Source: an uncultured Thermoleophilia bacterium (GTDB lineage Bacteria; Actinomycetota; Thermoleophilia; UBA2241). From it: a DNA stretch of 26,882 nt. Where the stretch lies: the NCBI GenBank assembly GCA_964615105.1, contig CAZTMO010000001.1, forward strand, positions 1-26,882, read 5' to 3'. The position numbers and the translations under genes were made by a program. Each line of letters begins with the position of its first letter. The first letter of the stretch is position 1. This document shows, one piece after another, positions 3,082 through 21,467 of the stretch. The notes below the pieces were generated by a model, which worked only from the letters and a program-made list of their open reading frames with translations, was not told the DNA's origin and searched no databases.

Positions 3082-3103
3082 AACGGATGCGATTCTATCA
3101 GGC

Positions 3104-3733: not shown

Positions 3734-3829
3734 ACGCTCCCTCCGCCACGATCTCGGCTCGTGCCCTCCCCGCTTCCAGATCTCCAACGAAGCACAGCGG
3801 CTGCGCGTCAGGGGCTTGCTGCGCCTGGC

Positions 3830-3864
3830 TTGGCGTTCCTTCTGGACCTGACGTAGAGTCCAGA
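3830..3864 (+). promoter_or_regulatory. Candidate sigma70 promoter for the M20 gene (TTGGCG-N18-TAGAGT), overlapped by the inverted repeat TCTGGAC-N10-GTCCAGA
   Basis: -35-like TTGGCG at 3830-3835 and -10-like TAGAGT at 3854-3859, 8 nt before ATG 3868 with no SD. The inverted repeat arms are at 3841-3847 and 3858-3864. Confidence 0.4.
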
Positions 3865-3867
3865 TGC

Positions 3868-5253: not shown

Positions 5254-5265
5254 CCCCCTGGAGCT

Positions 5266-5511
5266 TCATCCGCCGCCCAACGGCGCCACGAACGTGACCA
5301 CGGCGCCGTCGTGCAGCACGTGATCGTCGCCGATCGGCTGACCGTCGAGCAACGCGATGCGCCCGACCTCAGTCGGCATGCCCAAGGCATCGACCACGGC
5401 AGACAGCGGCGCCTCGCGCCCCGCCACGTGCACCACGACCGAGCCCTCTCCGCCGGCTCCCGGCGGGAGAAAGGCGCGATGGCCGCCAAACAGCACCGCC
5501 GTCACGTGCAC
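5266..5511 (-). CDS. moaD: MoaD/ThiS-family sulfur-carrier protein (copy 1)
   Basis: GTG 5511 lies 6 nt after AGGAGG. The 81-aa ubiquitin-like protein ends VTFVAPLGGG with the C-terminal Gly-Gly. The symbol is family-level only. Confidence 0.85.
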   Translation of the reverse strand: MHVTAVLFGGHRAFLPPGAGGEGSVVVHVAGREAPLSAVVDALGMPTEVGRIALLDGQPIGDDHVLHDGAVVTFVAPLGGG

Positions 5512-5556
5512 CCGCGTCCTCCTCGTGCTGACCGCTCGCTGAAGCGCATCCGAGAC

Positions 5557-5597
5557 TGCCGCAGGCCGGCGGCGACCCTCGTCGCCGGCCTGCGGCA
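5557..5597. terminator. GC-rich hairpin (about 17-bp stem with a 3-nt bulge and 4-nt loop) just downstream of the cupin gene
   Basis: TGCCGCAGGCCG-gcg-GCGAC-cctc-GTCGC-CGGCCTGCGGCA lies 5 nt after the cupin stop. There is no U-tract on the minus strand, so it is either a U-less terminator or an mRNA-stabilising stem. Confidence 0.55.
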
Positions 5598-5602
5598 CGG
5601 GT

Positions 5603-5995
5603 TCAGGCGGGCCTTGTCGGAGGGTACTCCGGGTACGAGAACACGTACACCATACTCATCGGCTCCGCGCTGTCGTTGACCACCCCGTGGGGCACGCCCG
5701 CGGGGATCAGGACACCCTGGCCGGCCCGGTATGAGACGCACTCGTCGCCGATCGAGAGCTTCCCCTCGCCCTCCACGATGTAACACAGCTCGTCCACCTC
5801 GTGGACCATCTGGTTGGTGTTGGCGCCCGGCTGCCACGTCGAGAACCCAAGCATCGTCGCCGAGGCGCCGTTGAGCGGGCCCGAGACCAGCTCGCACACC
5901 CAACTGCCGTCCGGCAGGTCGGTCCGCTTGCCCTCGCTGACGTCGACCACCTTGACGCGCTCGGTCCAGCGCGCAGCGTCCGCGTTCTTGTCCAT
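5603..5995 (-). CDS. Cupin-domain protein (monocupin)
   Basis: 130 aa with motif 1 GANTNQMVHEVDELCYIVEGEG and motif 2 GQGVLIPAGVPHGVVN. The ATG abuts the stop of the upstream gene. Confidence 0.88.
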   Translation of the reverse strand: MDKNADAARWTERVKVVDVSEGKRTDLPDGSWVCELVSGPLNGASATMLGFSTWQPGANTNQMVHEVDELCYIVEGEGKLSIGDECVSYRAGQGVLIPAGVPHGVVNDSAEPMSMVYVFSYPEYPPTRPA

Positions 5996-6997
5996 TCAGA
6001 TCACCAGCGCTCCGTCCTTGATGAGCATGCGCCCTTCAGCCTCGAGGCTGATGTTGCGCAGACAGCCGTCCAGGTGCAGGGCGCTGTGGCTTTGACCTCC
6101 GGGGTAGCAGTGCGCGTTGTCGCCGAGGGCGAAGTGGATCGTGCCGAGCAGGCCCTTCTCGGAGGCCGAGCCGCTCGGCGACTTCGTGCTCGTGCCCATG
6201 GCGAACTCGGCGACGACGTTGGCGTTCTCGTCCGAGCCGGCGACGACCGCCTTGAGGCGCTCGGCCTCGACACCACCTGAGATCTCGACCGCGCGACCGT
6301 CCTTGATCACCCACTTGATGGGCTCGCTGAGCGACCCGAACACGCCCACGCCGAGCATGATGCCGTCAACGACGATGATCCCCTCGGTCTTGTCTTCGAC
6401 GGCGGCGTAAGCGACCTCACCCCACAGCGGGACTGGCCCCATCATCTCGCCAGCGCCCTTGATCGGGACGACCTTGAGCGCCGGACGGTCCTTGATGCAG
6501 ACCTTCACGTCCGTGCCGGCCGGGTTGGTCACGCGGACCCACTCGACGCCGTCCAGTGCCGCCATCAGCTTCTCTGTTCTGGCGACGGTCTCGAGGATGT
6601 CGTCCTCGGTGAGATCCCAGTCAGCCATGCCCTCTTCGATAGACCCGATCTTGGCGCCGTTCTTGACGCTGGCGGCCACCGGGTTGACGTGCGCGAACCG
6701 GTTGGCCCACTCCAGGTTCGTGGTGATGATGATGACGTCGGACGCCTCCATCGCCGCGGCGAGGTTCTTGGCCGGCTCCATAGGGACTTTCATCGACGCC
6801 AGAGCTGCGCTCACATGATGCGAGACGTCGGCGACGACCGGGTACGCACCGAGCGACACGGCGACCCCGGCCACCGCCTCGGCTTCGCGGCGGTGATCCT
6901 CGTCGCAGATGATGAGCACCGCGTCGCCCGCCTTGACGGTGAAGCAGGTCTCCACTACCAGCCGGGCGCCCTTGATGAGCGTCGTGTAGGACTTCAC
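5996..6997 (-). CDS. M29-fold (aminopeptidase T / AmpS-like, short type) metallohydrolase
   Basis: The start is probably GTG 6997, 6 nt after AAAGGGG. Motifs: VKAGDAVLII, VRVTNPAGTDV, PLWGEVAYA, EGIIVVDG, VAEFAMGT, SEKGLLGTIHFALGDN and LHLDG. Confidence 0.8.
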   Translation of the reverse strand: MKSYTTLIKGARLVVETCFTVKAGDAVLIICDEDHRREAEAVAGVAVSLGAYPVVADVSHHVSAALASMKVPMEPAKNLAAAMEASDVIIITTNLEWANRFAHVNPVAASVKNGAKIGSIEEGMADWDLTEDDILETVARTEKLMAALDGVEWVRVTNPAGTDVKVCIKDRPALKVVPIKGAGEMMGPVPLWGEVAYAAVEDKTEGIIVVDGIMLGVGVFGSLSEPIKWVIKDGRAVEISGGVEAERLKAVVAGSDENANVVAEFAMGTSTKSPSGSASEKGLLGTIHFALGDNAHCYPGGQSHSALHLDGCLRNISLEAEGRMLIKDGALVI

Positions 6998-7064
6998 AGC
7001 CAACCCCTTTCAGACCTTCGCTCGTGGGAGACGCGCCGCCCGCGACCCCCCTCCTCTCTCCGGC

Positions 7065-9404
7065 TCACTCCGCTGCCCGCTTCTTTCGCAGCGCCTCAAG
7101 CACTCTCTCGCGCGTCATCGGCAACTCATGCAGACGGATGCCCACGGCGTCGTAGACGGCGTTGGCGATGGCCGGCGCGGTGGGAACGAGGCCGGGCTCA
7201 CCGATACCCTTGGCCCCGAACGGTCCTTTCGTCCCGATACTCTCGACGCAGATGGCCTGCACTTCGGGCATATCGCCGATGTTGGGGATCTTGTAGTCGA
7301 GGAACCGGTCGTTGACGATCCTGCCGTTCTCGTGGACGAGCTCTTCCATGAGAGCGAAGCCGATCCCCTGCGCGACTGAGCCTTCGATCTGACCCTCGGC
7401 CATCGTCTGGTTGATCGTCGTTCCCGTCTCGTGCGCGGCCACGACCTTGAGCACCGTGACTTGACCGGTCTCCGGGTCGACCTCGACTTCGGCTGCCTGC
7501 GTGCCGAACGAGAAGTTGGGGATGTTCTTGGCGAAAGCCGTCGGGATCGTGTATCCCTCGGGCAGGCGGTCGACGAAACGACCCTTGCCCGAGATGGTGA
7601 TGCCGTGCTCGTTGACGGAGTGGTTCACGATCTCGGAGAGGTCGTGCTTCTCCGCCGCACCCTTCGCCCAGATCTTGCCGTCCTGGACAAGGACGTCCTC
7701 GGGAGCGACCTCGAGCATCTCGGCGGCGGCAGCGACGAGATTGCGCCTCGCGTCTTTCGCGGCAGCCAGGACGGCGTTGCCGTCCATGAAACTCGCGCGG
7801 CTCCCCCAGGAGCCCAGGTCATACGGCGTGAGCTCGGTGTCGTGGGAGAGGACCCTGATCGCACTGAGAGGCACGCCGAGCTCCTCGGCGGCGATCTGCG
7901 CCATCGCGGTGTGGGCACCCTGTCCCATGTCGAGAGCTGACGTGATCAGCGCCACCGTGCCTTCGTCGGAGAGCTTGACGAACGCCTCGGCCGAGTTGTA
8001 GCCGTAGAAGCGACCGCCGCCGCCGGTGTGGACCATGTTGGCCAAGCCGACACCACGCAGCGGCGTCCTGCCCTCAGGAGCTCTCTTCTCCGCCCATCCG
8101 ATGCCGTCGGCCGCCGTCTGCATACACTCCGTCATGGCGCAGCCGCAGACCTCGGCGCCTGTGTGCGTGGTCTGCATGGGCTCGTTGGCGTTCTTCATGC
8201 GCAACTCGAGCGGGTCCAGACCCATGCTCTCGGCGAGCTCGTCGATCTGGACCTCGGTCGCGAACGCTACCTGGGGGTTGCCGAAGCCGCGGAACGCCGT
8301 GCCCATCTGCTTGTTGGTGTAGACCAGCTCGCCGTGAAAGCGCACGTTAGGGACGTTGTAGAGCGTGCCGAACATCATGCTCGAGAAATTGACGGTGGCC
8401 GGTCCCTTGTCGTGGTACGCGCCCGCATCGCCGATGAGCGTGAGATCTCGCACGAGGATGCGCCCGTCTTTGGTCCCTCCGGTCTTGAGATGCAGCTTGT
8501 ACGGGTAGCGCGTCTTGCTGGTGGTGAACTCCTCGCTGCGGGTATTGACGATGCGCACCGCACGGCCGGTGATCCGCGAAAGGATCGCGGCGATGGGCAG
8601 CTTCATGTCCATGACCAGCCTGGATCCGAACCCGCCGCCCATGGATGAGTTGATCACCCGCACGTGGCTGAGCGGGACGTCGAGCACGCGGGCGATCTCC
8701 TGACGCTGCGTGTGTGGCGCCTGCGTCGTGGTCCAGATCGTCACGCGGTCGTCGACGTCCCACTTGGCGACGCAGTTGGAGGTCTCGAGACAGGTGTGCG
8801 CGACCTGGTGGGTGACATACGTGCCCTCCACCACGTGGTCGCATTCCTCGAAGGCCTTGTCGGGATCGCCAAAGAGGCGATCGACGCTCCACGTGGCGTT
8901 GCTCTCCTTGTCCTCGTGAACGAGGGGTGCGTCCGGCTTCATGGCCTCGTCGACGTCGAAGACGGCCGGCAGCGGCTCGTAGTCCACCACGATGAGCGAG
9001 AGCGCCTCCTCGGCCGTGTCCTCGTCGATCGCGGCTACGGCGGCCACTTCATCGCCAACGTAGCGCACCTTGTCGGTGCAGAGGATGTGCTTGTCGGCCA
9101 GGAACTGATAGAAGCTGAACTTGGTGTCGGGAACGTCGTCCGCCGTGATGACGGCGCGCACTCCCTTGAGGCGCCTCGCCGCCGCCGTGTCGATGGACCG
9201 GATCCTCGCATGAGGATGGGGACTGCGCAGGATCTTGCCGATGAGCATCCCCGGCATGTGATGGTCGCCGGTGTACTTCGCCTCGCCGCAGACCTTGGGG
9301 ATCGCGTCGATACGCGGCAGGCGCTGGCCGATGATCGTCATCTCTCTCTCGACGACCTCGGTCTTCACGTCTGTCTTCACGTCGGTCTCCACGTCGGATC
9401 TCAT
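7065..9404 (-). CDS. Xanthine dehydrogenase-family molybdopterin-binding large subunit (CoxL/XdhA-like)
   Basis: Start refined to ATG 9404, an ATGA overlap with the small-subunit stop. Motifs: RIDAIPKVCGEAKYTGD, GKILRSPHPHARI, MGGGFGSR, AFRGFGNPQ, DMGQGAHT, GSWGSR, EGQIEGSVAQGIG and GPFGAKGIGEP. Confidence 0.95.
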   Translation of the reverse strand: MRSDVETDVKTDVKTEVVEREMTIIGQRLPRIDAIPKVCGEAKYTGDHHMPGMLIGKILRSPHPHARIRSIDTAAARRLKGVRAVITADDVPDTKFSFYQFLADKHILCTDKVRYVGDEVAAVAAIDEDTAEEALSLIVVDYEPLPAVFDVDEAMKPDAPLVHEDKESNATWSVDRLFGDPDKAFEECDHVVEGTYVTHQVAHTCLETSNCVAKWDVDDRVTIWTTTQAPHTQRQEIARVLDVPLSHVRVINSSMGGGFGSRLVMDMKLPIAAILSRITGRAVRIVNTRSEEFTTSKTRYPYKLHLKTGGTKDGRILVRDLTLIGDAGAYHDKGPATVNFSSMMFGTLYNVPNVRFHGELVYTNKQMGTAFRGFGNPQVAFATEVQIDELAESMGLDPLELRMKNANEPMQTTHTGAEVCGCAMTECMQTAADGIGWAEKRAPEGRTPLRGVGLANMVHTGGGGRFYGYNSAEAFVKLSDEGTVALITSALDMGQGAHTAMAQIAAEELGVPLSAIRVLSHDTELTPYDLGSWGSRASFMDGNAVLAAAKDARRNLVAAAAEMLEVAPEDVLVQDGKIWAKGAAEKHDLSEIVNHSVNEHGITISGKGRFVDRLPEGYTIPTAFAKNIPNFSFGTQAAEVEVDPETGQVTVLKVVAAHETGTTINQTMAEGQIEGSVAQGIGFALMEELVHENGRIVNDRFLDYKIPNIGDMPEVQAICVESIGTKGPFGAKGIGEPGLVPTAPAIANAVYDAVGIRLHELPMTRERVLEALRKKRAAE
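9361..9396. repeat. Three-copy 12-bp tandem repeat in the 5' end of the molybdoenzyme large-subunit gene
   Basis: GTCTTCACGTCT / GTCTTCACGTCG / GTCTCCACGTCG, which encodes DVET-DVKT-DVKT on the minus strand. Confidence 0.8.
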
Positions 9405-9886
9405 CGTGACGTCACCTCCTCGCGAAGGTGGTCTCCCGCGGCCTTGACGGCCTCGATGATCTTCACGTAGCCGGTGCACCGGCAGAGGTTGCCCCGCAGC
9501 CCTTCGAGAATCTGTTCCCGGCTGGGATCGGGATTGCGATCGAGCAAGGCCTTCGCCGACATCACCATGCCGGGGGTACAGAAACCGCACTGGATGGCGC
9601 CGTGCTCGACGAAGGCACGCTGTACAGGGTCGAGCGAGCCCCCGCCGGCCAGACCTTCGATCGTCGTGACCTCGCGACCGTCGGCCTCGTGAGCAAGCAT
9701 GAGGCAGGAGTTGACCGGCTGACCGTCGAGCAGCACCGTGCAGGCTCCACACTCGCCCTGGTTACAGCCGTTCTTGGTACCTGTCAAGCCGATGTCTTCG
9801 CGGATGATCTCGAGGAGGGTGCGATGGGTGTCTACGAACAGGTCGTACTCGTCCCCGTTGACCGTTATGTGCAGCTCTCGCTTCAC
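9401..9886 (-). CDS. 2x[2Fe-2S] small subunit of a XDH-family molybdoenzyme (CoxS-like)
   Basis: [28 protein letters not shown] and GNLCRCTGY. The GTG start overlaps the FAD-subunit stop (GTGA). Confidence 0.96.
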
Positions 9887-10764
9887 CCTCGTCCTCCGTT
9901 CGTGACCCAGCCCTGCGCCGCTGTGAGGACGCGCCGCGACATGACCTCCACCAGCACCCGGCGGTACTCCGCCGAGGCGCGGATATCGTCGATGGGGCGT
10001 GACTCCTCGACCGCTTTGGCGGCCGCCGCCGCGATCACGACCTCGTCCAGCTCTCTACCGATCAGCGACGCCTCGGCGGCGCGCGCCCGCATGGGTGTGG
10101 GGGCGACGGCGCCCAGAGCGAGGCGAGCCTCGCGTACGACGACCGACCCCGGCTCGAAGGCGGCGAACAACGCCACGCCGACCGTACAGCAGTCCATGGC
10201 CGAGCGGAACGTCTTCAGATATGTGGCGAAGCTGTCCTGGGGCACGGCCGGCACGCGGACTGCCTTCAGCAGCTCGCCGCACCGCAGAACGGTCTGCCCG
10301 GGCCCCGTGAAGAAGTCCTCGAGCGGGACGACGCGTTCGTCGCTGCCATCGGTGAGAACGGCCTTGGCATCCAGGGCGATCAGGATCGCCGCCATGTCGG
10401 CTGACGGTGCGGCATTGCAGAGGTTCCCCCCGATGGTCGCCCGGGTGCGCACTTGCACCGAGCCGATCCAGGAGGCGGCCCGTGCGATCGCAGGGAAGCG
10501 CTCCATGACCTCAGGTGAATGCTCGATCACGCCGAGCGGCGTGACCGCTCCGATGGCGACGCCGCCTTGGGCGTCCGCCTCGATGAAGTTGAGGCCGGGC
10601 ACGTCACGAAGGCTCACGACCACGTCGGGACGCAGCCCGGCCGCCCTCACCTGTACGAGGACGTCTGTGCCTCCGGCCAAGGCCAGTGCGGAGCCGTTCG
10701 AGCCGGCCAGCACGTCGCAGGCCTCCTTGAGCGAACTCGGACGCGCGTAGTCGAACGCTCTCAT
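9883..10764 (-). CDS. FAD-binding medium subunit of a XDH-family molybdoenzyme (CoxM-like)
   Basis: Start refined to ATG 10764 (MRAFDYARPSSL). Motifs: LAGGTDVL, IGSVQVRTRATIGGNLCNAAPSAD, ALGAVAPTP and IDDIRASAEYR. Confidence 0.95.
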   Translation of the reverse strand: MRAFDYARPSSLKEACDVLAGSNGSALALAGGTDVLVQVRAAGLRPDVVVSLRDVPGLNFIEADAQGGVAIGAVTPLGVIEHSPEVMERFPAIARAASWIGSVQVRTRATIGGNLCNAAPSADMAAILIALDAKAVLTDGSDERVVPLEDFFTGPGQTVLRCGELLKAVRVPAVPQDSFATYLKTFRSAMDCCTVGVALFAAFEPGSVVVREARLALGAVAPTPMRARAAEASLIGRELDEVVIAAAAAKAVEESRPIDDIRASAEYRRVLVEVMSRRVLTAAQGWVTNGGRG

Positions 10765-10789
10765 TGAATCAGCTCCCGTCCGCGGCCTG

Positions 10790-12016
10790 TCATGCCGACC
10801 GGGTCGCCACGCCGGCGCGCGTGTTCTCGATCGGCGCTTCGACCATCGTGATCGCCTCGCGGGCGCACAGGAAGTAGCAGACGGCGCAGGAGTAGCAGTC
10901 CTTCGGCTTGACGAGGACAGCCTTCTTGTCGCGGATCTCGATGCACTCGCAGTGACCCGGCGCGGCGCAGAGACCACACCCGTTGCACTTCTCGAGGTCG
11001 ATCTCGGGGAGCATCGGGATGTAGTGCACCTCGCCCGGGGTGACGATGTACTTGAGAGCGATTCCGCGCATGTCCGCCAACGTCTCGTAGCCATTCTCGT
11101 CCATGAACTTGCGCATGCCGGGCTCGATCTTGGCGAACGCCTTGTAGCCCTTCAGGTAGAGGAGCGAGCAGTACGTGAGCACGGTGGCGCCGTACATGAT
11201 CATCTCCACGGAGTGGCGCCAGTTCATGAGACCGCCACCGCCGGCCAGCGGCAACGTCGGACAGATCGTGCGCATCTGCGCGATATGGCGGTAGGCGAGC
11301 GGCCGGATCCACGGGCCGCAGAGCCCGGCGAAGGACTGGTTGTCGGTCGACGGGTACATCGGCGTGCCGCCGTTCTTGATGTTGAGCGGCGGCAACGACT
11401 GCGGGCAGTTGATGGCCGACACCGCAGCCGCGCCGTTCTTCTCCACCGAACGCGCCACCATCATGGTGTTGGCCTCTGGGGTCATCTTCGGCATCACGGG
11501 GATCTTCACCGCATCGGCCACGGCCTTGCAGACCTGACCGGCCAGTGCCGGGTCCTTGCCTAGGGTGGCGCCGAGCTCGGGCTCTTCGTCGACACCCATC
11601 TGCTTGGCCATGAGCCCCAGGTTCGGACAGCTCATGTTGAGCTCGAGCATGTCGGCGCCGGCCTCTTCGAGCATGCGCGCCAACTTGGCCCAGCCCTCGA
11701 GGTCCTCACCAGGGCCCATCATGTTGGCGATGATCTTGAGCTCGGTCTGCTCCTTGCACTGCTGGATGAGCTCCTGCGTGTCCTCCACGCGCATACGCTC
11801 GCCCGACGGTGAGTAGAAGGCGCCTTCCTTCTCGATGATGTGATAGGGACGCGCGTACAACGGGACCTTGAGAAAGGTGAGCTTCGTGCTGACGGCCGAA
11901 GCGCCGTTCTCCTCAGCCCACTTGATCTTCTCGACCTTGTTCGTCAACTCGGACGAGGCGATGATGAATGGATTCTTAAGCTTGAGGCCTGCGAAGTCGA
12001 CTGACAGGTCAGCCAT
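10790..12016 (-). CDS. preA: PreA-like FMN TIM-barrel oxidoreductase (dihydroorotate/dihydropyrimidine dehydrogenase family) with C-terminal 2x[4Fe-4S] domain
   Basis: Start ATG 12016 after GAAGGGGGAG. Motifs: LSVDFAGLKLKNPFIIAS, LELNMSCPN (active-site loop Cys), PKMTP, SAINC, GLCGPWIRPLA, LAGGGG, CNGCGLC...HC and CYSCAVCYFLC. The symbol indicates similarity, not proven function. Confidence 0.85.
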   Translation of the reverse strand: MADLSVDFAGLKLKNPFIIASSELTNKVEKIKWAEENGASAVSTKLTFLKVPLYARPYHIIEKEGAFYSPSGERMRVEDTQELIQQCKEQTELKIIANMMGPGEDLEGWAKLARMLEEAGADMLELNMSCPNLGLMAKQMGVDEEPELGATLGKDPALAGQVCKAVADAVKIPVMPKMTPEANTMMVARSVEKNGAAAVSAINCPQSLPPLNIKNGGTPMYPSTDNQSFAGLCGPWIRPLAYRHIAQMRTICPTLPLAGGGGLMNWRHSVEMIMYGATVLTYCSLLYLKGYKAFAKIEPGMRKFMDENGYETLADMRGIALKYIVTPGEVHYIPMLPEIDLEKCNGCGLCAAPGHCECIEIRDKKAVLVKPKDCYSCAVCYFLCAREAITMVEAPIENTRAGVATRSA

Positions 12017-13661
12017 CGAGCTCCCCCTTCTGCACGTCGGTTTCCTCTGCGGTCTCTGCAAACCCGGACACCGCCACGGTCTCGCGGGTCGCCTCAAGGC
12101 GCGCGGCGATCTCCAGGTAGCGGCCCTCGACCGCCGCCTGAGCGTCGTCGCGCGCTTCGTCTGTCCAGTAGCCCAGCTCGTAGCCGAACCACGGCTTTCT
12201 CAGGCTCAGCGGCGGCAGGCCCTCGGCCTCCCAGCGCGCCAGCGCCCGTTCCATGAACTCCTTGCGCGGCAGCGACGTCGGCGGGTAGTCCCACTTGCGC
12301 GTCGCGTCGATGAGGATCGCCGACGTCCCCGAGGGCTGCGGGAAGCGCTGTTCGTCGACGTGCGCCTCTGGCGGCGCCGAGGACGGATCGAGGATGCTGG
12401 CCTTGCCGGTGACGATGTGCGTGTCCAGATGTGGGCGCATCCGGTAAGCCATAGCCCAGTTGACGGCATCGGCGTCATTGGGATCGATGTCCTCGTCGAC
12501 GGCGACGATCATCTTGCCGATCGTCGGGTCGAGCGCGACGGCGGCGTGGAGCGCCTGCCAGGGCTGCGACGGGTGTACCTTCTTGAGCTGGATGACCATC
12601 AACCCGTAGCTGCCGGTCATCTCGTGGAGCTGGACGTCGAGGATCCCCGGGATGTTCGCCGACTTCAACCTGTTGAGGTACACGGCGTCATAGGCGAGCT
12701 TGCGGATGAGGCTGCTCTCCGACGGCGGGAACTGGCTCAGGAAGGCCTGGTAGACCGGCGTCTTGCGGTGCATGATCCCCGTCACGTGGAACACCGGATT
12801 GGCGACGCGCGTGCCCATGTAGCCCGTGTACTCGCCGAAGGGCGCCTCCTGCTCGCGGTACGTCGGGTCGACGTATCCCTCGACGACGATCTCGGCGCTC
12901 GCCGGGACCTCGAGATCGACCGTCTGGCACTTGACCAGCTCGATCGGCTCGCCGGCGATGCCGCCGGCAACGGCGAACTCGTCGACGCCGTACGGGATCT
13001 TGGCGACGCTGCAGAGGCCGACGGCCGGCGTGCAGCCGAGGATGATGGCCGCCTCGAGCACCTTGCCGTTACGGCGCGCGCTCTGCAGGTGCAGGCCGAT
13101 GTGTTGGCTCTGATGAGCCATCATGCCGGCCTTTCCGCCCCCCTTCACCATCACCCGGTACGTGCCCACGTTGCGGTCGCCAGTCTCGGGATCCTTGGTC
13201 ACCCAGAAGGGCGAGGTGAAGTACGGCGCGGGGTCGAAGCCCGGCGTGGAGATGGGATGCGGGAACTCGAGAATGCCGTCGTGCTCAAGCAGCCCGTCGC
13301 CGACGTGGATCTCCTCCATGACGGGACCATCGTCGACGAGCACGGGAGGGATGTAGCCTCGGTGGACCGCCGCCCAGCGATCACTGATCTCGTCGGGGCC
13401 ACAGCCGAGCGCCTTCGCGTATACCGCCCGGTTGGCCCCGAGGACACCGACAGCGACGGGGCCGGGGAACGTGCGTCCGTTGACGTCTCTCACGTCCTCG
13501 AACACGAATGCCGTGCGCTGCTCGGCCGGCAGGCCGCGGAACTGCAGCCTGACCAGCGGCATGAGCTCGGTGTCCTTGCAGATCGGCGTGCGCACCCGCC
13601 GGAGCAGGTCTGCGGCCTCCAACGCCGCGATGTACTCGCGAAAATCCTTGTAATAGCTCAC
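12009..13661 (-). CDS. ubiD: UbiD-family prFMN-dependent (de)carboxylase, about 550 aa
   Basis: Start refined to GTG 13661 (GTGA overlap, MSYYKDFREYIAALE). Motifs: RNVGTYR, EIVVEG, EAPFGEYTGY, IVAVDEDIDP and ILIDATR. The symbol is family-level only. Confidence 0.93.
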   Translation of the reverse strand: MSYYKDFREYIAALEAADLLRRVRTPICKDTELMPLVRLQFRGLPAEQRTAFVFEDVRDVNGRTFPGPVAVGVLGANRAVYAKALGCGPDEISDRWAAVHRGYIPPVLVDDGPVMEEIHVGDGLLEHDGILEFPHPISTPGFDPAPYFTSPFWVTKDPETGDRNVGTYRVMVKGGGKAGMMAHQSQHIGLHLQSARRNGKVLEAAIILGCTPAVGLCSVAKIPYGVDEFAVAGGIAGEPIELVKCQTVDLEVPASAEIVVEGYVDPTYREQEAPFGEYTGYMGTRVANPVFHVTGIMHRKTPVYQAFLSQFPPSESSLIRKLAYDAVYLNRLKSANIPGILDVQLHEMTGSYGLMVIQLKKVHPSQPWQALHAAVALDPTIGKMIVAVDEDIDPNDADAVNWAMAYRMRPHLDTHIVTGKASILDPSSAPPEAHVDEQRFPQPSGTSAILIDATRKWDYPPTSLPRKEFMERALARWEAEGLPPLSLRKPWFGYELGYWTDEARDDAQAAVEGRYLEIAARLEATRETVAVSGFAETAEETDVQKGELDG

Positions 13662-15550
13662 AATCCTGCTCCATCCAGTAGGTTCGCGACGATCGGATCG
13701 CTCGTGACCCATTCGAGTCCGAGCCGCTCCAGGGTCTCGGGTGTTGGCATGCTCGTCACCGGGTCGTATCCGCTCGCGGCGTACAGCTCCCGGCGCATGA
13801 GGTCGAAGTCCACGACCTGCCCGGCGATCGGGCCCTCGGGGACCGCCTCCTCGAGGAGCCTCGCCGGGATCGTGTCGTCCTCGGCGCGCAGGCCTTCACG
13901 GACGTTGATGACGCGCTCCAGGGCGTTGATGCGCTCGCCGGCCAGGTACATGTCGGCCGCCGAGAACTCGTGCCCCGTCGCCGTGCCGATGAGCTCGGCC
14001 AGTGTGCCGTCCTGCATGCCGATGGTCAGGAACGCGCACGTGCCTGCGGAGTCGGCCGCCGCGGCTCGCCGGTTGCGGCTGCCGAGCGCGATCGGCGCCT
14101 TGCCCGAGTCCGCGAAGCGGTCGATGTCCGGGTTCGTCAGTTCGGCGGTGACCGTGTAGCCGCCGGCGTGATGGCAGCCGCCCCGGTTGCCGCACCCGTA
14201 GACGAGCGCCATCCCCTTCGCCCCACGAGGATCGTAACCGCCCACCTCCATGCCTTTGGCGTGCATCGCAAAGGCCTCGGAACCCTGGCCGATGCGTTCG
14301 GCCATCGCTTTGCTACCCAGCGCGATCTCAGCGCCGAAGCCGCGTCTGAAGGCGGCGTCCTTGACCAGCTCGATCATCGCCTCCGCGTTGCCGAAGCGCA
14401 GGTCGATGCCCCCTGTGTCTTCCTTGGTGATCAACCCGCGTTCGAAGCACTCCATGGCGAACGAGATGGTGACGCCGACCGAGATGGTGTCGATGCCGTA
14501 GAGATCGCAGAGCTGGTCGGCCGCGATGACCGCGCCCAGATCGTAGACGCCGCACGAGCTCCCCAGCGAGTAGACGGTCTCGTACTCCGGTCCTTCAGAG
14601 GTCGCCCCCGCGTAGGGACCGTCCCGCACGACCGTGACCTTGCTGCACCGCGAGGGACAAGGATCGCCGCACGGAGCGTCCTTAACGAGGTACTGCTCGC
14701 GCAGCATGTCGCCGAGCAGCCCACGACCCTTGTCGACCGGCGCCGACCGCTGCCAGTTGTCGGCCGGCATGATGCCCGAATTGAGCGTCACGGCGACAGT
14801 GCTGACCGAGCCGTGAAGCTTCAGCGGACCAGAGGTGAAGGGGTGCTCACGAAGCTCCTTGACGATCTTCTTGACCGCCGCTTTGAACCCGTCGGGATCG
14901 CCGACGGGCGCGGCCTCTGCGCCCGCGCGCACGACCATGGCCTTGACGTTCTTTGAGCCCATGACAGCGCCGGCGCCGCCGCGGCCGAGCGCACGACGCT
15001 CGTTGAGCAGGCAGGCGTAAGGAACGAGGTTCTCTCCGCCCGGGCCGATGCAGGTGATCGCGACTTGGCCGCGCGGCAGTTCGTCGCGGATGTACTCCTG
15101 CGCCGAAAGCGTATCGAGGCCCCAGAGGTGGCCGGCCGGATGCAGCTTGGCCTTGCCGCCAGTGATCTCGACGTACACCGGCTCGTCGCTACGCCCGGTG
15201 AGGACGATGACGTCGAAGCCGGAACGCTTGATCACCGGTCCCAGATCGCCCCCGGTGATGCAGAAGAGATAGAGCCCGGTCTGAGGCGACTTCGTCGCCA
15301 GGGCGGCCCGAGCAGAACCCGGGGCCGTCGTTCCGCTCAGGGGTCCGGAGGCGAAGATGAGCGGGTTCTCCGGACTCAGCGCGTCGGTCCCTGCGGGCAG
15401 CATGTCGAACAGGTAGCGGGCGGCAAGGCCGCGGCCGCCGACGAAGCTTCTCGCGGCGGCCGCATCGAGATCCTCGACACGCTGCTCGCCGCTGCCGACG
15501 TCGACGACGAGAACCTTGCCCCAGAATCCGCCCACAGGGAACTGCCCCAT
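13658..15550 (-). CDS. aor: Aldehyde:ferredoxin oxidoreductase (AOR/WOR) family tungstoenzyme catalytic subunit, paralog B
   Basis: ATG 15550 lies 6 nt after AAGGAG (alternative GTG 15556). Motifs: GGRGLAA, KSPQTG, GRGGAGAVMGSKNVKA, EGPEYETV, CDLYGIDTIS, KGMEVGGYDPR, RGGCHH and DSAGTCAF. Confidence 0.95.
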   Translation of the reverse strand: MGQFPVGGFWGKVLVVDVGSGEQRVEDLDAAAARSFVGGRGLAARYLFDMLPAGTDALSPENPLIFASGPLSGTTAPGSARAALATKSPQTGLYLFCITGGDLGPVIKRSGFDVIVLTGRSDEPVYVEITGGKAKLHPAGHLWGLDTLSAQEYIRDELPRGQVAITCIGPGGENLVPYACLLNERRALGRGGAGAVMGSKNVKAMVVRAGAEAAPVGDPDGFKAAVKKIVKELREHPFTSGPLKLHGSVSTVAVTLNSGIMPADNWQRSAPVDKGRGLLGDMLREQYLVKDAPCGDPCPSRCSKVTVVRDGPYAGATSEGPEYETVYSLGSSCGVYDLGAVIAADQLCDLYGIDTISVGVTISFAMECFERGLITKEDTGGIDLRFGNAEAMIELVKDAAFRRGFGAEIALGSKAMAERIGQGSEAFAMHAKGMEVGGYDPRGAKGMALVYGCGNRGGCHHAGGYTVTAELTNPDIDRFADSGKAPIALGSRNRRAAAADSAGTCAFLTIGMQDGTLAELIGTATGHEFSAADMYLAGERINALERVINVREGLRAEDDTIPARLLEEAVPEGPIAGQVVDFDLMRRELYAASGYDPVTSMPTPETLERLGLEWVTSDPIVANLLDGAGL

Positions 15551-15552
15551 GC

Positions 15553-16701
15553 TCACTCCTTTGCCAGCGCCTTGCGATACAGGCGCTCGAGGTCGGCAGG
15601 CGACGCGTTACGCACGTTCAGCCTGTAGTTGACGACTTTCGTGCACTGCTCGACCAGTACGGGGATCTCTTCGTCGGTGACGACAGCCGGGTCCAGGGTG
15701 GTCGGGAAGCCCACGGCCTCCATGAGACTCCAGAGGCGATAGAGCAGCTCCTCGGCGAGCTCGGCATCGTCGCCCTGCTCGCCGAGCAACCTCGCGATCG
15801 GGGCGATCTTGGCGCTGGCCACCGGCAGGTTGAACTCCATGGCGTACGGCAGCATGATGCCGGTGGCCAGCCCATGAGACATGTGGAGCCGTCCCAGTGG
15901 CTGCGACAGAACGTGGGCGAGACCCGGCAGCGACGTGCCCGTCGCCATGTTCGCGATCGTGCTGGCCTCGAGCATGCGCTGCTTGGCGCCGAGATCGCCG
16001 GTCAACGCCGCTCTGGGCAGACTGTCGAAGATCGTCGCCGCGGACGTCGCGGCCAAGCCGTCCGAGAAGTCGGTCGCGCCGACCGACCAGATCGCGTCCA
16101 GCGCATGCGCCAGGGCGTCCATCCCGGCAACCAGCGCCGGCCACGCCGGAAGGCTCTCCATGAGTCCGCCGTCCAGGATCGCGACGGTGGGGTACGTGCG
16201 TTCGTCGAGGATCGACATCTTGAAGCCGCGCGCCTCGTCGGTGAGGATCGTCACCTTCGAGACCTCGGTCCCCGAGCCCGCGGTAGTGGGGACGGCGATC
16301 ACCGGGAACGGCGCCTTGGCGGCCTTGTTGAAGCCCTCGTAGTCGGTGAGCACGCCGCCGTTGGCGGCCACGAGGGCGATTCCCTTACCGGCGCACATCG
16401 GGCTTCCGCCCCCCAGAGCTATGACCAGGTCGCAACCCTCCGCCTTGAAGACCTCGACGCCGGCAGCGACGGTGCGCACGCCGGGGTCTTCCTCGACTTG
16501 GTCAAACAGGACATAGGGCAATTCCGCCTCGTCCAGGAGGCCGGTGACGCGGCTCGTCACGCCCGCCGCCGACAGACCGGCGTCAGTACAGATGAACGCC
16601 TTGCTGCCCCCGGAGGCGCGCACCTGCGCCGCGACGGCCCCGATGCTGCCCAGGCCGTGCACGATCCGAGTAGGCATGAAGAAGAGCTTCGGCTGCGACA
16701 T
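15553..16701 (-). CDS. Iron-containing (group III) alcohol dehydrogenase
   Basis: The start is probably ATG 16701 after GGGGGA. Motifs: FFMPTRIVHG, LGGGSPM, VPTTAGSGTEVS, GMDALAHALD and GLAHVLSQ...SHG. Confidence 0.93.
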   Translation of the reverse strand: MSQPKLFFMPTRIVHGLGSIGAVAAQVRASGGSKAFICTDAGLSAAGVTSRVTGLLDEAELPYVLFDQVEEDPGVRTVAAGVEVFKAEGCDLVIALGGGSPMCAGKGIALVAANGGVLTDYEGFNKAAKAPFPVIAVPTTAGSGTEVSKVTILTDEARGFKMSILDERTYPTVAILDGGLMESLPAWPALVAGMDALAHALDAIWSVGATDFSDGLAATSAATIFDSLPRAALTGDLGAKQRMLEASTIANMATGTSLPGLAHVLSQPLGRLHMSHGLATGIMLPYAMEFNLPVASAKIAPIARLLGEQGDDAELAEELLYRLWSLMEAVGFPTTLDPAVVTDEEIPVLVEQCTKVVNYRLNVRNASPADLERLYRKALAKE

Positions 16702-16731
16702 CGATCCCCCAGTCATCAGACTCTTGTCTTA

Positions 16732-16759
16732 AGCATAGTCTATCGTCCAGTATTATGAA
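16732..16759 (-). promoter_or_regulatory. Candidate internal sigma70 promoter (TTCATA-N16-TATGCT) for the adh-to-cupin genes
   Basis: An AT-rich patch overlaps the gntR stop, with -35-like TTCATA at 16754-16759 and -10 TATGCT at 16732-16737. The predicted start is near 16725, about 25 nt upstream of the adh ATG. Confidence 0.5.
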
Positions 16760-17715
16760 TCGGACAAGTCGACCTCGAGGACATCGTCTGCTCCGGCCTG
16801 CCCGCGGACGTCCTCAGGCTCCAAGCTGACGAGCGCAGTACCGTCACGAACGGCTCCGCGCGCGGCCGCTTCACCAGTCAGCGCGTCCCAGAACGTCCCA
16901 CCGTTCTCGTGGCTCCTCGTGAGAAATCCGCGATGCTTGTACCGGTCGGAGCGGTAGTAGACCTCCGCCAGATCGACCACGCGGGCGTCCGACGTGTAGA
17001 CGGTGAGCGTCAGTTTGAGAAGCGAGGTCAGCAGATCCACTTCGAGCAACCTCGCCTGCTCGTCGTCGGCGGCCACCGCCTCGAACATCTGCGAAGCCCA
17101 ATCGACCTTGAAGCCGGTCCGCTTCTCGATCAGCACGATGAGGGGTTCCTTCTCAAGTTCGCTCAGCGAGAGACACGCGCCCACCTCGTACGGGACGTAG
17201 TTGGTCAAGACGGCCAGCGGCCGGTCGCCCACGAGCCGCACACGTTGCACGTAGAACAGGTCCGCGTCTTCGCCGATCGCGAACGTCTCAGCGAGGTCCG
17301 GCGTTGGTTTCACGAGCCTGAACTCGACCACGCGGACGCGCGTGTCGGGCCCGATGTGGATGAGATCCTCCAAGCTCCCGCTGATGTGCGGCGTCGCGTC
17401 GTCGGCAAGCTCCTCCGAGACGAACGAGCCCTTCCCCTTGACTCGCCGGATCAGGCCCTGGTCGTCGAGCATCTGGAGAGCCTGGCGCACCACCACACGG
17501 CTCACGCCGAAACGCTTCGTGAGCTCCGCCTCGGACGGCAACTGGCGCCCAGGCGCGAGCTTGCCCGCGATGATTTGCTCTTTGAGGTTCCGCATGACCT
17601 GGTAGTAGAGGGGGATCCCATTGCGACGACTTGGCCTCCCCCTGCGGGTCGTCGACAGCCGGCCGTCGCCGGCGGCAGCTCCCGGCCCGCCCTTGGAGCC
17701 CCACTGTCCACTCAT
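16753..17715 (-). CDS. GntR-family transcriptional regulator, HutC subfamily (wHTH plus UTRA)
   Basis: ATG 17715 lies 7 nt after AGGAG. The HTH reads IPLYYQV...LPSEAELTKRFGVSRVVVRQALQMLDDQGLIRRVKGKGSFV. The UTRA region includes VQRVRLVGDRPLAVLTNYVP and YYRSDRY. Confidence 0.95.
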   Translation of the reverse strand: MSGQWGSKGGPGAAAGDGRLSTTRRGRPSRRNGIPLYYQVMRNLKEQIIAGKLAPGRQLPSEAELTKRFGVSRVVVRQALQMLDDQGLIRRVKGKGSFVSEELADDATPHISGSLEDLIHIGPDTRVRVVEFRLVKPTPDLAETFAIGEDADLFYVQRVRLVGDRPLAVLTNYVPYEVGACLSLSELEKEPLIVLIEKRTGFKVDWASQMFEAVAADDEQARLLEVDLLTSLLKLTLTVYTSDARVVDLAEVYYRSDRYKHRGFLTRSHENGGTFWDALTGEAAARGAVRDGTALVSLEPEDVRGQAGADDVLEVDLSDS

Positions 17716-18033: not shown

Positions 18034-19839
18034 TCAGACACCAAGCCGTTCGCGCGCGGCCGCGGTCGGCACTCCGTCTGCGTCCCAGCCGCGAAGGCTG
18101 TAGTACTCGTCCAGGACATCGGCGACGTCGAGCTTGTGTCCCTCGGGGTCTGACGGCGCCGCCTCTTCCGCGAACCGTCGCGGCAAAGCGTCGTCCGCCC
18201 GTGTGAACCCCTCCTCGACGTTGAAGAGACGCTCCAGCGTATTGACGCGCGAACCTATCGTGTACACGTCGTCCGTCGTGAGGTTCATTCCCGTGGGCAG
18301 GTTCGCACAGCGCGCGTAGAGCTCGACGCTGATGCCGAGGTCGACCGTGAACATGCACATGATCAGCGAGTCGATCATCACCGTGCTGTCCTGCATCCGC
18401 TTCACCAGCTCGGCTTTGCCCTCAAGAGAGTAGCGGTCGTAGTCGCCCAATACCCCGAGGAACTCCGCCGCCACGGTGAACGCCTTGTTGTGGTCGGCGC
18501 CGCGTCCGGTCGTGGCATAAGAGATGCCCATGCCGGTGAAGCCGCGCGGCGCGTAGGCGGCGATCTCGAGGCCCTTCACCTGCATGGCGTACTCCTCGCC
18601 CCTGCCCAGCTTGCGCGCCGCGCCGCGCGACCCGAGGGCGAGCACGTCGCCGAAGCCCTCACGTGCGCCGATGCTGAGAAGCGCGGGCCGCAGGACGTCG
18701 GCGTTGCCGAAGGTGAAGTCCAGCCCGTCGGTCTCGTCCTTCGTCAGCAGGCCCTTCTCGGTCATCTCCATGGCCCACGCGATGGTCGAGCCCGCCGTCA
18801 TCGTGTCGATGCCCATCTGATCGCAGAGGTAGTTGGCCTCCATGATCGCCGTGAGGTCGAGGATGCCGCAGAGGGGGCCGAGCGCCCAACACGACTCGTG
18901 GTCGAGGCGCTCGGATCGATACGAGCGCCCGTCGCGCTCGAACTCCAGGACCGCGCCGCAGATCACGTTGCAGCTGCTACAGGCTTCGCGACCGGTGATG
19001 TAGGAGTCGATCACCTCGTGATGGATCGTGCTGACATCCGGGACTCTGTCGTCCTGATGGTTCCGATAGGGCAGCCCGGTCGCCTCGTTCACGTTCGGCA
19101 GCATGCCGTTGGTCCCGGGCCAGCGAAACGCGGGCCGCACAGGGTTCTCCATGATGATGTCGTGAAGCGCCTTGCACCCGGCGATGTAGTCCGTGGTGGA
19201 CGCTGCGACGCTGACGCCGCCTGAGCCGCGCACGGCGACGGCCTTCAGTCGCTTGCTGCCGAAGACGGTCCCCGATCCGCCGCGACCGGCGTTGTGCTGC
19301 ATGTGCATGAACGTGCCGTAGCGCACGCCGTTCTCGCCGCCCGGGCCGATCGTCCCGATCTGGAAGTCGTGGCCGAGCTCCTCCTCGAGGAGAGCTTGCG
19401 CTTCGAGACACTCCTTGCCCCAGAGCCGCGTCGCGTCGACAAGTCGCGCCTTCTCGTCGTCCACGACCAGCGCCACCGGCTTCTCCGAAACGCCCGTGAT
19501 GATGATGCCGTCCCACCCGGCGTACTTGAGCGCGGGCCCGAAGTGGCCGCCCATGTAACTGGCCGAGATGGTCCCGGTCAGCGGGCTCTTCACGCCGATG
19601 GCGATGCGACTGGCGGTCGGGATCATCGTGCCCGTCGCCGGCCCGGTCGCGAACACGATCACGTTCTCCGGGCCGAGTGGGTCGATGCCCCTCGGCAGCA
19701 TGTCGTAGAGCAGCTTCGCCACAAAGCCGCGCCCGCCGATGTACTTCTCGGCGAGCTCGTCAGTGAGCGGCAGCGAGCCGAACTCCCCGGTCCCGAGGTC
19801 GACGGTCAGGAACTTGCCGGTGTAGCCGCCGTACTTCAT
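18034..19839 (-). CDS. aor: Aldehyde:ferredoxin oxidoreductase (AOR/WOR) family tungstoenzyme catalytic subunit, paralog A
   Basis: ATG 19839 follows GGAGG (ATGA overlap). Motifs: YIGGRGF, KSPLTG, GGHFGPALKYAGWDG, GRGGSGTVFGSKRLKA, CSSCNVIC, CDQMGIDTM, RGADH and DSLIMCMF. Confidence 0.95.
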   Translation of the reverse strand: MKYGGYTGKFLTVDLGTGEFGSLPLTDELAEKYIGGRGFVAKLLYDMLPRGIDPLGPENVIVFATGPATGTMIPTASRIAIGVKSPLTGTISASYMGGHFGPALKYAGWDGIIITGVSEKPVALVVDDEKARLVDATRLWGKECLEAQALLEEELGHDFQIGTIGPGGENGVRYGTFMHMQHNAGRGGSGTVFGSKRLKAVAVRGSGGVSVAASTTDYIAGCKALHDIIMENPVRPAFRWPGTNGMLPNVNEATGLPYRNHQDDRVPDVSTIHHEVIDSYITGREACSSCNVICGAVLEFERDGRSYRSERLDHESCWALGPLCGILDLTAIMEANYLCDQMGIDTMTAGSTIAWAMEMTEKGLLTKDETDGLDFTFGNADVLRPALLSIGAREGFGDVLALGSRGAARKLGRGEEYAMQVKGLEIAAYAPRGFTGMGISYATTGRGADHNKAFTVAAEFLGVLGDYDRYSLEGKAELVKRMQDSTVMIDSLIMCMFTVDLGISVELYARCANLPTGMNLTTDDVYTIGSRVNTLERLFNVEEGFTRADDALPRRFAEEAAPSDPEGHKLDVADVLDEYYSLRGWDADGVPTAAARERLGV

Positions 19840-20246
19840 GAGGCACCTCCCCAGGTGAGCGCCCCTTCGGGACACCACTTGACACAGAGCGGATCACCGT
19901 CGCACAGGTCGCAGATCATGATGCGCCTGTCGACGGCGTCCTGGTGGACGTTCGGGCAGGCGTCGAGACAGGCGCCGCAGTCGGTGCACTCCTCCTGGAT
20001 GAAGCGCACGACGCCGGCCTCCTCGTCCCAGACGAGCGCTTCCTGCGGGCACGCGTCGACGCAGACTCGCTCGTGCGTCATGTCACAGACGGAGCACTGC
20101 ATGGGCCCAAGGTGGATACCCGGCTGTCGCGAGACCTGGATGCACGCCCCGGATGGCTGAACGCGGCCAAGCTTGTTCAGCGAGCACACGCCCGAGCACA
20201 TATCGCAGGCGATGCACTTCTCGACATGGAACTCGATGTAGTTCAT
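19836..20246 (-). CDS. 4x[4Fe-4S] electron-transfer subunit (DmsB/AorA-like)
   Basis: Start ATG 20246 (MNYIEFHVEK). 136 aa with CIACDMCSGVC, CSVC...CVDACP, CTDCGACLDACP and CDLC...CVKWCP. Translationally coupled to AOR paralog A. Confidence 0.93.
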   Translation of the reverse strand: MNYIEFHVEKCIACDMCSGVCSLNKLGRVQPSGACIQVSRQPGIHLGPMQCSVCDMTHERVCVDACPQEALVWDEEAGVVRFIQEECTDCGACLDACPNVHQDAVDRRIMICDLCDGDPLCVKWCPEGALTWGGAS

Positions 20247-21432: not shown

Positions 21433-21467
21433 ACCGAACACCTTCCTTCGTTAAGTGGGTGACGGGC

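Follow-up and report, generated by a model that had tools for sequence, protein, structure and literature searches.

The 26,882-nt stretch of DNA analysed here, contig CAZTMO010000001.1 of assembly GCA_964615105.1 from an uncultured Thermoleophilia bacterium of UBA2241 (hereafter the window), carries a gene for a long UbiD-type decarboxylase within a cluster of genes related to those of vitamin B6 catabolism. Our judgement leans slightly towards a role in which this enzyme decarboxylates a pyridine-dicarboxylate intermediate of B6 breakdown, most likely removing the C4 carboxylate of 3-hydroxy-2-methylpyridine-4,5-dicarboxylate (HMPDC) to give 3-hydroxy-2-methylpyridine-5-carboxylate. The substrate, regiochemistry and order of steps suggested are read from gene content: the UbiD gene occupies the decarboxylase position of a B6-type cluster, that of HMPDC 4-decarboxylase (EC 4.1.1.51). 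The function is proposed for a Thermoleophilia subclade of the protein only, and not for the whole clade of long UbiDs to which it belongs. This subclade would probably be the first UbiD-type enzyme to act on a pyridine ring.

The window encodes a UbiD-type decarboxylase

As judged from its sequence, the product is a decarboxylase of the UbiD type that depends on prenylated flavin mononucleotide (prFMN) and has all catalytic motifs. The gene, its landmarks and the window's gene for cofactor synthesis are placed as follows.

12009-13661, minus strand: coding sequence of the UbiD-family decarboxylase, 550 amino acids (aa); GTG start at 13661, TGA stop at 12009-12011
13155-13175, minus strand: RNVGTYR, residues 163-169, with the metal/prFMN-site Asn164 and the catalytic Arg169
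12819-12848, minus strand: EAPFGEYTGY, residues 272-281, with the catalytic Glu272 and Glu277 of the E-R-E (Glu-Arg-Glu) network
12012-12299, minus strand: C-terminal extension past the Pfam UbiD_C domain, residues 455-550, characterised by AlphaFold2 (AF2) secondary structure, predicted local distance difference test (pLDDT) and clade-wide conservation
12165-12197, minus strand: KPWFGYELGYW aromatic loop, residues 489-499, a hallmark of the long-UbiD clade
2482-3159, minus strand: UbiX flavin prenyltransferase (prFMN synthase), 176 bits to TIGR00421 against a cut-off of 108.9, 8.85 kb downstream of UbiD

The open reading frame that an earlier note on this DNA had placed at 12009-13661 is real and encodes 550 aa; its strand has been corrected to minus. 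Translation of 12009-13712 from an upstream ATG at 13712 gives 567 aa. Since the homologues are 527-552 aa long and begin with M(S/A/G)YY(K/R/A)DFREY, lengths and N-termini that fit the GTG at 13661, the latter is the correct start. It overlaps the stop codon of the upstream aldehyde:ferredoxin oxidoreductase (AOR) gene, AOR B, as GTGA (13661-13658). At its 3' end the gene overlaps the PreA-like gene by 8 nt, ATGGCTGA, with the PreA-like ATG at 12016 and the UbiD stop at 12011-12009. The overlapping start and stop codons reported for both sides are thus present at the AOR junction, whereas the PreA-like side has an overlap in which start and stop are not shared. The protein was also said to be longer than typical UbiDs, and it exceeds every matched solved UbiD (448-527 aa). 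Of the segments singled out in it, RNVGTYR and EAPFGEYTGY are intact as described. MPLVRLQFRG, by contrast, is not an N-terminal segment, being found at residues 34-43 as a motif internal to the UbiD_N domain, and KPWFGYELGYW does not end the protein, in which 51 more residues follow GYW.

Domains UbiD_N (PF20695), UbiD (PF01977) and UbiD_C (PF20696) all score above their gathering thresholds and end near residue 452. The only NCBIfam UbiD model passed is the generic TIGR00148 (253.5 bits against a cut-off of 244.85). In an alignment of 88 relatives N164, G166, Y168 and R169 are invariant in the first motif, which aligns with RNVSIHR of HmfF and QNLGIYR of Escherichia coli UbiD; in the second, which aligns with EGPFGEY of HmfF, F275, E277 and G280 are invariant and E272 is nearly so. 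N164, R169, E228, E272 and E277 are conserved throughout the 14 subclade sequences and, with few exceptions, in the 78 other clade members. The catalytic R169, E272 and E277 and the cofactor and metal ligand set N164, H187 and E228 are present and conserved across 92 clade members; we take the three ligands to be the counterparts of N168, H191 and E233 of Fdc1. An AF2 model built on the 88 relatives reached a pLDDT of 90.6 and a predicted template modelling score of 0.86. Its best Foldseek match is HmfF (6H6V, E 1e-42), followed by HudA, E. coli UbiD, Fdc, AroY, InD and VdcC, and the top 50 matches are all UbiD enzymes.

Named UbiD identities were tried and rejected. The protein scores 213 bits against the MqnL model (TIGR03701, cut-off 496) and 150 bits against the UbiD model of quinone biosynthesis (NF008175, cut-off 788). 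For a phenolic acid decarboxylase of the VdcC/BsdC kind the score is 205 bits against a cut-off of 650 (NF041204), no gene like that of the zinc-ribbon subunit VdcD is nearby and UbiX lies 8.85 kb off. With the models for phenylphosphate carboxylase subunits and BagN, too, the protein falls far below the NCBIfam cut-offs. The genome holds a second UbiD on contig 172 (L002), cut by the contig end and MqnL-like (205.7 bits over the first 192 of 433 model positions).

Two UbiX genes of the genome score above the cut-off, the second being on contig 52 (L089). The copy in the window, which had been called neighbouring, is on the same strand as UbiD but at the distance given above. In the closest relatives, too, a UbiX gene lies downstream on the same strand, at 11-12 kb; the subgroup of 72-77% identity has no such linkage.

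A gene cluster related to vitamin B6 catabolism

The remaining members of the cluster include a pyridoxamine-pyruvate aminotransferase (PPAT)-like gene, an alcohol dehydrogenase (ADH) gene and a hydroxylase of the xanthine dehydrogenase (XDH) family.

10790-12016, minus strand: PreA-like FMN/Fe-S reductase, 225.6 bits to NF006183 and thus below the cut-off of 335; it adjoins UbiD in related loci
13658-15556, minus strand: AOR paralog B, of the tungsten-type AOR family (Pfam AFOR_N/AFOR_C)
15553-16716, minus strand: iron-containing ADH (Fe-ADH; Pfam Fe-ADH/ADH_Fe_C)
7065-10764, minus strand: XDH-family molybdenum hydroxylase, with FAD (9883-10764), 2Fe-2S (9401-9886) and Mo (7065-9404) genes
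5996-7003, minus strand: NicX-like protein of M29 fold (Pfam M29; PF26233 NicX in relatives)
5603-5995, minus strand: cupin, conserved at the cluster end
20263-21441, minus strand: PPAT-like class V aminotransferase, 344.6 bits to NF046070 (cut-off 600; next family 160)
18034-20246, minus strand: poly-ferredoxin (19836-20246) and AOR paralog A (18034-19878), by Pfam, with open reading frame bounds
16753-17715, minus strand: GntR/UTRA regulator inside the cluster, by Pfam, conserved in relatives
21468-26334, minus strand: BMP-type ABC importer, with substrate-binding protein (25234-26334; matches NF047927), ATPase and two permeases

Gene contexts were compared at 80 loci, one genome per species. 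Fourteen cluster-linked Thermoleophilia sequences (72-92% identity) form one subclade in the tree, with a Shimodaira-Hasegawa-like approximate likelihood ratio test support of 100 and a stem length of 0.31, and none of the approximately 60 other long-clade members within the 80 loci has a window-type cluster. The Thermoleophilia loci share a conserved order of permeases, PPAT-like aminotransferase, poly-ferredoxin, AOR A, GntR/UTRA regulator, Fe-ADH, AOR B, UbiD, PreA-like gene, XDH trio, NicX-like gene and cupin. The adjacency of AOR B and UbiD is conserved across these loci, and Fe-ADH copies 60-91% identical occur in 15 of 19. The Mo-hydroxylase is found in the subgroup of 83-92% identity and in one further locus (L018). 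In the subgroup of 72-77% identity (L005-type loci) the place of the XDH trio is taken by a third AOR-family gene and a 730-aa GlpC/CCG-type Fe-S protein (L005, 12824-20126), and the cluster gains genes for a true alanine dehydrogenase, a Zn-ADH and a ThiS-like protein.

The link to vitamin B6 comes from the aminotransferase and the importer. PPAT of Mesorhizobium loti (PDB 2Z9U) is matched by the window aminotransferase at 274.5 bits (next match 159.7) and by its L005-type counterpart at 376.4 bits (next match 148.6); the mutual identity of the two is only 37%, yet PPAT is the best match for both. Against NF046070 both score 345-463 bits, with the next family at 160-218. The substrate-binding protein of the window reaches 371.6 bits to NF047927, "putative B6 ABC transporter substrate-binding protein" (cut-off 400), and the L005 permease 428 bits to NF047928 (cut-off 465). 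The alanine dehydrogenase of the L005-type cluster (498 bits against a cut-off of 392) fits a pyruvate/alanine-coupled transaminase. One aminotransferase, one ADH and two AORs would be the set needed to carry the 4-aminomethyl and 5-hydroxymethyl groups of pyridoxamine to a 4,5-dicarboxylate; the Zn-ADH is an additional gene in some relatives, for example L005 and L088.

A third type of locus (L129, L130 and L131) has a B6-type importer and a PPAT-like gene followed by HdrC/B-like, HdrA-like, MvhD, Fer4 and NAD-binding Fe-S genes (e.g. L130, 5226-12431), with neither UbiD nor class II aldolase nearby. Because such loci exist, the importer and aminotransferase pair is not always tied to the catabolic module. 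Just past the cupin of the window, on the opposite strand, lies a gene for an M20/ArgE-DapE-type deacylase (3868-5253, plus strand), of which 43-52% identical copies stand beside the cluster in several relatives; it may deacylate a ring-opened product.

A sister cluster carries an aldolase-family gene

With the L005 aminotransferase as query we searched 401 genomes of the class and read 20-kb regions around 33 matches together with four upstream regions. Two cluster types emerged, a UbiD type and an aldolase type. The aldolase type shares the importer, the PPAT-like gene, the NicX-like protein and the cupin with the UbiD type, and it also has an XDH-family enzyme. One member, L155, was scanned in full (3606-13773). 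Its substrate-binding protein scores 430.7 bits to NF047927, above the cut-off, and its NicX-like protein is 51% identical to that of the window. L155 further encodes a pyridoxal 4-dehydrogenase of the short-chain dehydrogenase/reductase family (NF047923, 362 bits against a cut-off of 325), a 5-formyl-3-hydroxy-2-methylpyridine-4-carboxylate (FHMPC) dehydrogenase (NF042925, 431 bits against a cut-off of 500, next family 214), a luciferase-like (LLM) oxidoreductase and a class II aldolase-family protein; a GMC oxidoreductase is present in some aldolase-type loci. The other aldolase-type members were checked as homologues in L143, L154, L156 and L157, where the pyridoxal 4-dehydrogenase, the FHMPC dehydrogenase and the aldolase recur; the LLM oxidoreductase has homologues in all of these but L154.

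The class II aldolase-family protein matches PDB 2Z7B (Mlr6791 of M. loti) at E 1.5e-19. Mlr6791 is the HMPDC decarboxylase of M. loti according to a reference listed in PMC3538738. We infer that the aldolase-family gene of the sister cluster is a predicted HMPDC decarboxylase. It stands 8.2-10.3 kb from the aminotransferase in 11 of 11 aldolase-type genomes, which belong to four other families of the class, and none of these 11 genomes has a long UbiD at E<=1e-100. No homologue of the aldolase, FHMPC dehydrogenase, pyridoxal 4-dehydrogenase, LLM or GMC proteins was found in the UbiD-type loci, and the sole class II aldolase of the window genome sits on another contig. Because the UbiD and the aldolase exclude each other in otherwise homologous clusters, the two are alternative fillings of one cluster slot, a pattern that supports non-orthologous displacement. 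By the same comparison of gene content, the AOR and Fe-ADH genes alternate with NAD/FAD dehydrogenases, and the PreA-like gene with LLM; the L155-type cluster looks oxygen-tolerant. The suggestion of the earlier note that the UbiD is a non-homologous replacement of the aldolase-fold B6 decarboxylase is thus supported by cluster homology and mutual exclusion.

One locus (L149, genome G212, of the same family) was assigned to the UbiD type despite a UbiD gene that is broken across several frames (12947-14610), either a pseudogene or the result of long-read frameshift errors. Another contig of the same genome has, at its start, a further UbiD fragment of 222 aa.

Proposed pathway and its alternatives

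In the pathway that we propose, B6 vitamers would be imported by the BMP-type ABC importer, and the PPAT-like aminotransferase would convert pyridoxamine and pyruvate to pyridoxal and alanine. AOR A, working with the poly-ferredoxin, would oxidise the 4-aldehyde to 4-pyridoxate. The Fe-ADH would then oxidise the 5-hydroxymethyl group, and AOR B would take the resulting aldehyde to the dicarboxylate. The UbiD would decarboxylate HMPDC at C4, the carbon ortho to the 3-hydroxyl, before further processing of the ring, which would fall to the PreA-like reductase, the NicX-like protein, the cupin and either the Mo-hydroxylase or a third AOR. Its prFMN would come from one of the two UbiX genes of the genome. 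In the predicted active site Asn164, His187 and Glu228 would hold the metal-bound cofactor, Arg169, Glu272 and Glu277 would form the E-R-E network, and Glu277 would reprotonate the ring carbon once CO2 is lost.

At twenty-eight positions the subclade has a fixed residue that is rare in the rest of the clade. Among them M181, H183, Q184 and S185 precede the conserved metal-site His187, I423 adjoins the conserved Leu424, and R269, which is Leu, Val or Met in the 78 other long-clade members, precedes the strand of the catalytic Glu. From Fdc1 structures we presume that the segments with these residues line the substrate pocket, and we treat them as leads only.

Several observations weigh against decarboxylation of HMPDC by this enzyme. 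The scores of the PPAT-like, importer and FHMPC dehydrogenase proteins are mostly under the NCBI equivalog cut-offs, and their exact specificities may differ. The aldolase-family protein of the sister cluster is closer to 8IQA (97 bits) than to Mlr6791 (74 bits). The UbiD type is confined to two families (f1 and f4) and the aldolase type to four (f2, f3, f5 and f7), and because the cluster types are split by family their exclusion rests on few evolutionary events. No 2-methyl-3-hydroxypyridine-5-carboxylate oxygenase was seen in either cluster type; in both, the lower pathway is probably unlike that of M. loti, and the step of CO2 loss could differ too. As far as the NCBIfam libraries show, the long-UbiD clade is uncharacterised. 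For the electron-poor pyridine ring, our literature searches returned no paper that connects pyridoxal, 4-pyridoxate or pyridine carboxylates with UbiD or prFMN.

The enzyme could serve the same B6-type pathway at another step, acting on a mono-acid (4- or 5-pyridoxate), on the C5 carboxyl of HMPDC, or after ring hydroxylation by the Mo-enzyme, and so not be the exact equivalent of the aldolase step. We think this rather unlikely. It is true that the order FeADH-AOR-UbiD-PreA-XDH fixes neighbours and not chemistry, that the lower pathway (XDH, NicX-like protein, PreA or LLM) is unlike the M. loti route, and that 4-pyridoxate was likewise named by the earlier note. However, two AORs and an ADH imply oxidation of both side chains before decarboxylation, and the displaced aldolase accompanies an FHMPC dehydrogenase, the product of which is the dicarboxylate. 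In the chemistry of hydroxyarylic acid decarboxylases the carboxyl is activated by a ring hydroxyl, and in HMPDC this applies to the C4 carboxyl, which stands ortho to the hydroxyl.

B6 is indicated by the aminotransferases and the importer and, in the sister cluster, by pyridoxal 4-dehydrogenase and FHMPC dehydrogenase, which makes it improbable that the cluster breaks down another hydroxymethyl or aminomethyl heteroaromatic, such as hydroxymethylfurfural (HMF) via 2,5-furandicarboxylate, the thiamine pyrimidine or 5-hydroxymethyl-pyrimidines, with the UbiD acting on its (di)carboxylate. HmfF is indeed the nearest solved relative, and the HMF pathway likewise pairs alcohol and aldehyde oxidation with a UbiD and an XDH-family enzyme; but HmfF falls outside the long clade, its furan-specificity residue His296 is Ser316 in the window UbiD, and the cluster is without a CoA ligase for a furoyl-CoA route. 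In favour of such a substrate, reductive pyrimidine catabolism is also brought to mind by the M20 gene and the PreA-like gene, and nucleosides are the usual cargo of BMP-type importers. There is, finally, only a very slight chance that a housekeeping quinone decarboxylase (UbiD/MqnL), or a carboxylase as in anaerobic phenol or benzene activation, stands in the cluster by accident. Joint Genome Institute pipelines do label relatives "4-hydroxy-3-polyprenylbenzoate decarboxylase", and some long-clade members elsewhere are paired with a short UbiD and an aryl-CoA ligase. The scores for MqnL, UbiD, VdcC and phenylphosphate carboxylase nevertheless lie far under their cut-offs, the gene is translationally coupled to AOR B and the PreA-like gene, the subclade is restricted to the B6-type cluster, the genome has a separate MqnL-like UbiD fragment, and kinase, ligase and partner subunit are absent from the cluster.

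Beyond the assignment of HMPDC as the substrate in the Thermoleophilia subclade, a bolder proposal is conceivable, to which we give somewhat less than an even chance. It holds that the window UbiD is the first pyridine-acting prFMN/UbiD enzyme and the HMPDC decarboxylase of a previously undescribed, oxygenase-free, ferredoxin/tungsten-AOR route of B6 breakdown that arose by displacement of one module after another, and that the whole clade (~300 clusters at 50% identity) consists of decarboxylases of hydroxylated (hetero)aromatic dicarboxylates. The parts replaced would be the NAD/FAD dehydrogenases and the class II aldolase of the oxygen-tolerant route, whereas importer, aminotransferase and the lower pathway with NicX-like protein and cupin would have been kept.

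The C-terminal tail and the long-UbiD clade

The aromatic C-terminal extension noted for this gene is not confined to it; the whole long-UbiD clade, across many phyla, shares it. In the AF2 model the extension consists of a helix (467-479), the aromatic loop, two further helices (501-511 and 515-523) and a disordered acidic end (539-550). P490, G493, G497, W499, A507, A510 and G513 are invariant in the 88 relatives, and W491, Y494 and L496 are nearly so. These relatives span Actinomycetota, Chloroflexota, Thermodesulfobacteriota, Bacillota, Pseudomonadota, Binatota, Tectimicrobiota and Thermoplasmatota. Of the extension, just the final ~20 acidic residues are restricted to the closest relatives of the window UbiD. 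A search with the tail alone against 1.8 billion cluster representatives gave 296 matches, always the C-terminus of proteins of ~530-555 aa or fragments. The tree unites 91 long UbiDs in a single clade (support 100) and places HmfF and the short UbiD paralogs that accompany some of them outside it. The clade is marked by the PWxGYxLGYW loop followed by two helices, by the motifs ELMPLVRxQFRGL and SQFPPSESS, and by lengths of 525-552 aa, all of which the window UbiD shares. None of the long-clade members tested reached a named NCBIfam equivalog.

Two explanations of the tail were considered and dropped. It does not mark B6 specificity, being clade-wide and present in unrelated gene contexts, and a fused VdcD-like small subunit found no support, as the tail-only search matched solely C-termini of long UbiDs or gene fragments. 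A function for an uncharacterised UbiD clade, which the earlier note had expected, is accordingly proposed here for the Thermoleophilia subclade; the rest of the clade stands in other contexts.

In Alphaproteobacteria the contexts of long UbiDs comprise Bug-type binding proteins, bicupins like gentisate/5-aminosalicylate dioxygenase, amidohydrolase_2 and IclR proteins. Such loci look like an aerobic catabolic cluster for a hydroxy-aromatic (di)carboxylate. Several of them (L058, L059, L063-L069 and L083-L086) have long UbiDs as two or three tandem paralogs with Bug/TctC binding proteins. In Chloroflexi and Deltaproteobacteria the contexts include short UbiD partners and PaaK-like ligases.

The nearest outgroup, from Thermincola and Pelotomaculum (two Bacillota families), has a conserved arrangement of long UbiD, nadC and UbiX (L024, 10001-13156; L087, 466-3792, the same as L025). 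The Pelotomaculum nadC is a true TIGR00078 equivalog (355 bits) and the Thermincola copy is 58% identical. The Thermincola locus also holds a second long UbiD, a tripartite ATP-independent periplasmic (TRAP) transporter, two AMP-binding ligases and a sigma-54 regulator. The nadC neighbourhood may link the outgroup UbiD to pyridine-2,3-dicarboxylate (quinolinate), and since TRAP transporters and aryl-CoA-type ligases are there too, it is a lead only. In a further genome of the class (G111, contig 15, 78151-92998) two long-UbiD paralogs (47% and 44% identity) lie ~11 kb from a class II aldolase-family gene and away from the PPAT-like gene of that genome.

Implications

UbiD enzymes are sought after as catalysts of reversible (de)carboxylation, and only about a dozen substrate classes are known, among which our searches turned up no pyridine acid. 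The window protein is a clear member of this known family, for which a new substrate class and a new pathway role are predicted from sequence. If the prediction is true, prFMN chemistry would extend to electron-poor N-heterocycles, with a possible use in making or trimming pyridine carboxylates. Abundant uncultured Thermoleophilia of soil and groundwater would then have a second, probably oxygen-independent route of B6 breakdown. The two cluster types would provide a clean natural case of non-orthologous displacement of an entire oxidation-and-decarboxylation module, and a UbiD clade of several hundred sequence clusters would gain its first functional foothold.

Comparison with known systems

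By sequence (196 bits, E 8e-57) and by fold, the closest solved relative of the window UbiD is HmfF, the 2,5-furandicarboxylate decarboxylase of Pelotomaculum thermopropionicum (6H6V/6H6X) and Cupriavidus basilensis. The folds agree at a template modelling (TM) score of 0.86-0.91 on the target with ~30-32% identity, both proteins have the E-R-E network, HmfF shares an Arg at the position of R269, and its substrate is a heteroaromatic dicarboxylate. HmfF differs in having 448 aa and no ~95-residue tail, and its gene context is another one, in which it works with furoyl-CoA enzymes. Its furan specificity is set by a His (H296/297) (PMC7976604), which aligns with Ser316 of the window UbiD. With this substitution, and with HmfF grouping among the short UbiDs outside the long clade, we rejected the window gene as an HmfF orthologue.

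Mlr6791 (2Z7B), of the class II aldolase/adducin fold, is the enzyme that we propose as the functional counterpart, acting at the same step of B6 catabolism; in the sister cluster a member of its family stands at the matching position. The two are not homologous, Mlr6791 being a metal-dependent protein of ~240-270 aa and the window UbiD a UbiX-dependent prFMN enzyme of 550 aa.

UbiD enzymes that act on N-heteroaromatic acids are known in HudA/PA0254 (pyrrole-2-carboxylate) and AnInD (indole-3-carboxylate), which resemble the window protein at a TM score of ~0.8 and an identity of ~25%. Unlike pyridines, the N-containing rings on which these two enzymes act are five-membered and rich in electrons. 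HudA belongs to the Fdc branch and is dimeric (PMC7976604).

In the prFMN-dependent AroY and VdcCD a ring hydroxyl activates the ring carbon, and a quinoid prFMN adduct has been proposed (PMC8379154). The substrates of AroY and VdcCD are benzene rings with a para-hydroxyl, unlike the pyridine proposed here. Of the systems compared, these two enzymes would nonetheless offer the most plausible mechanistic model for the decarboxylation of a 3-hydroxypyridine-4-carboxylate.

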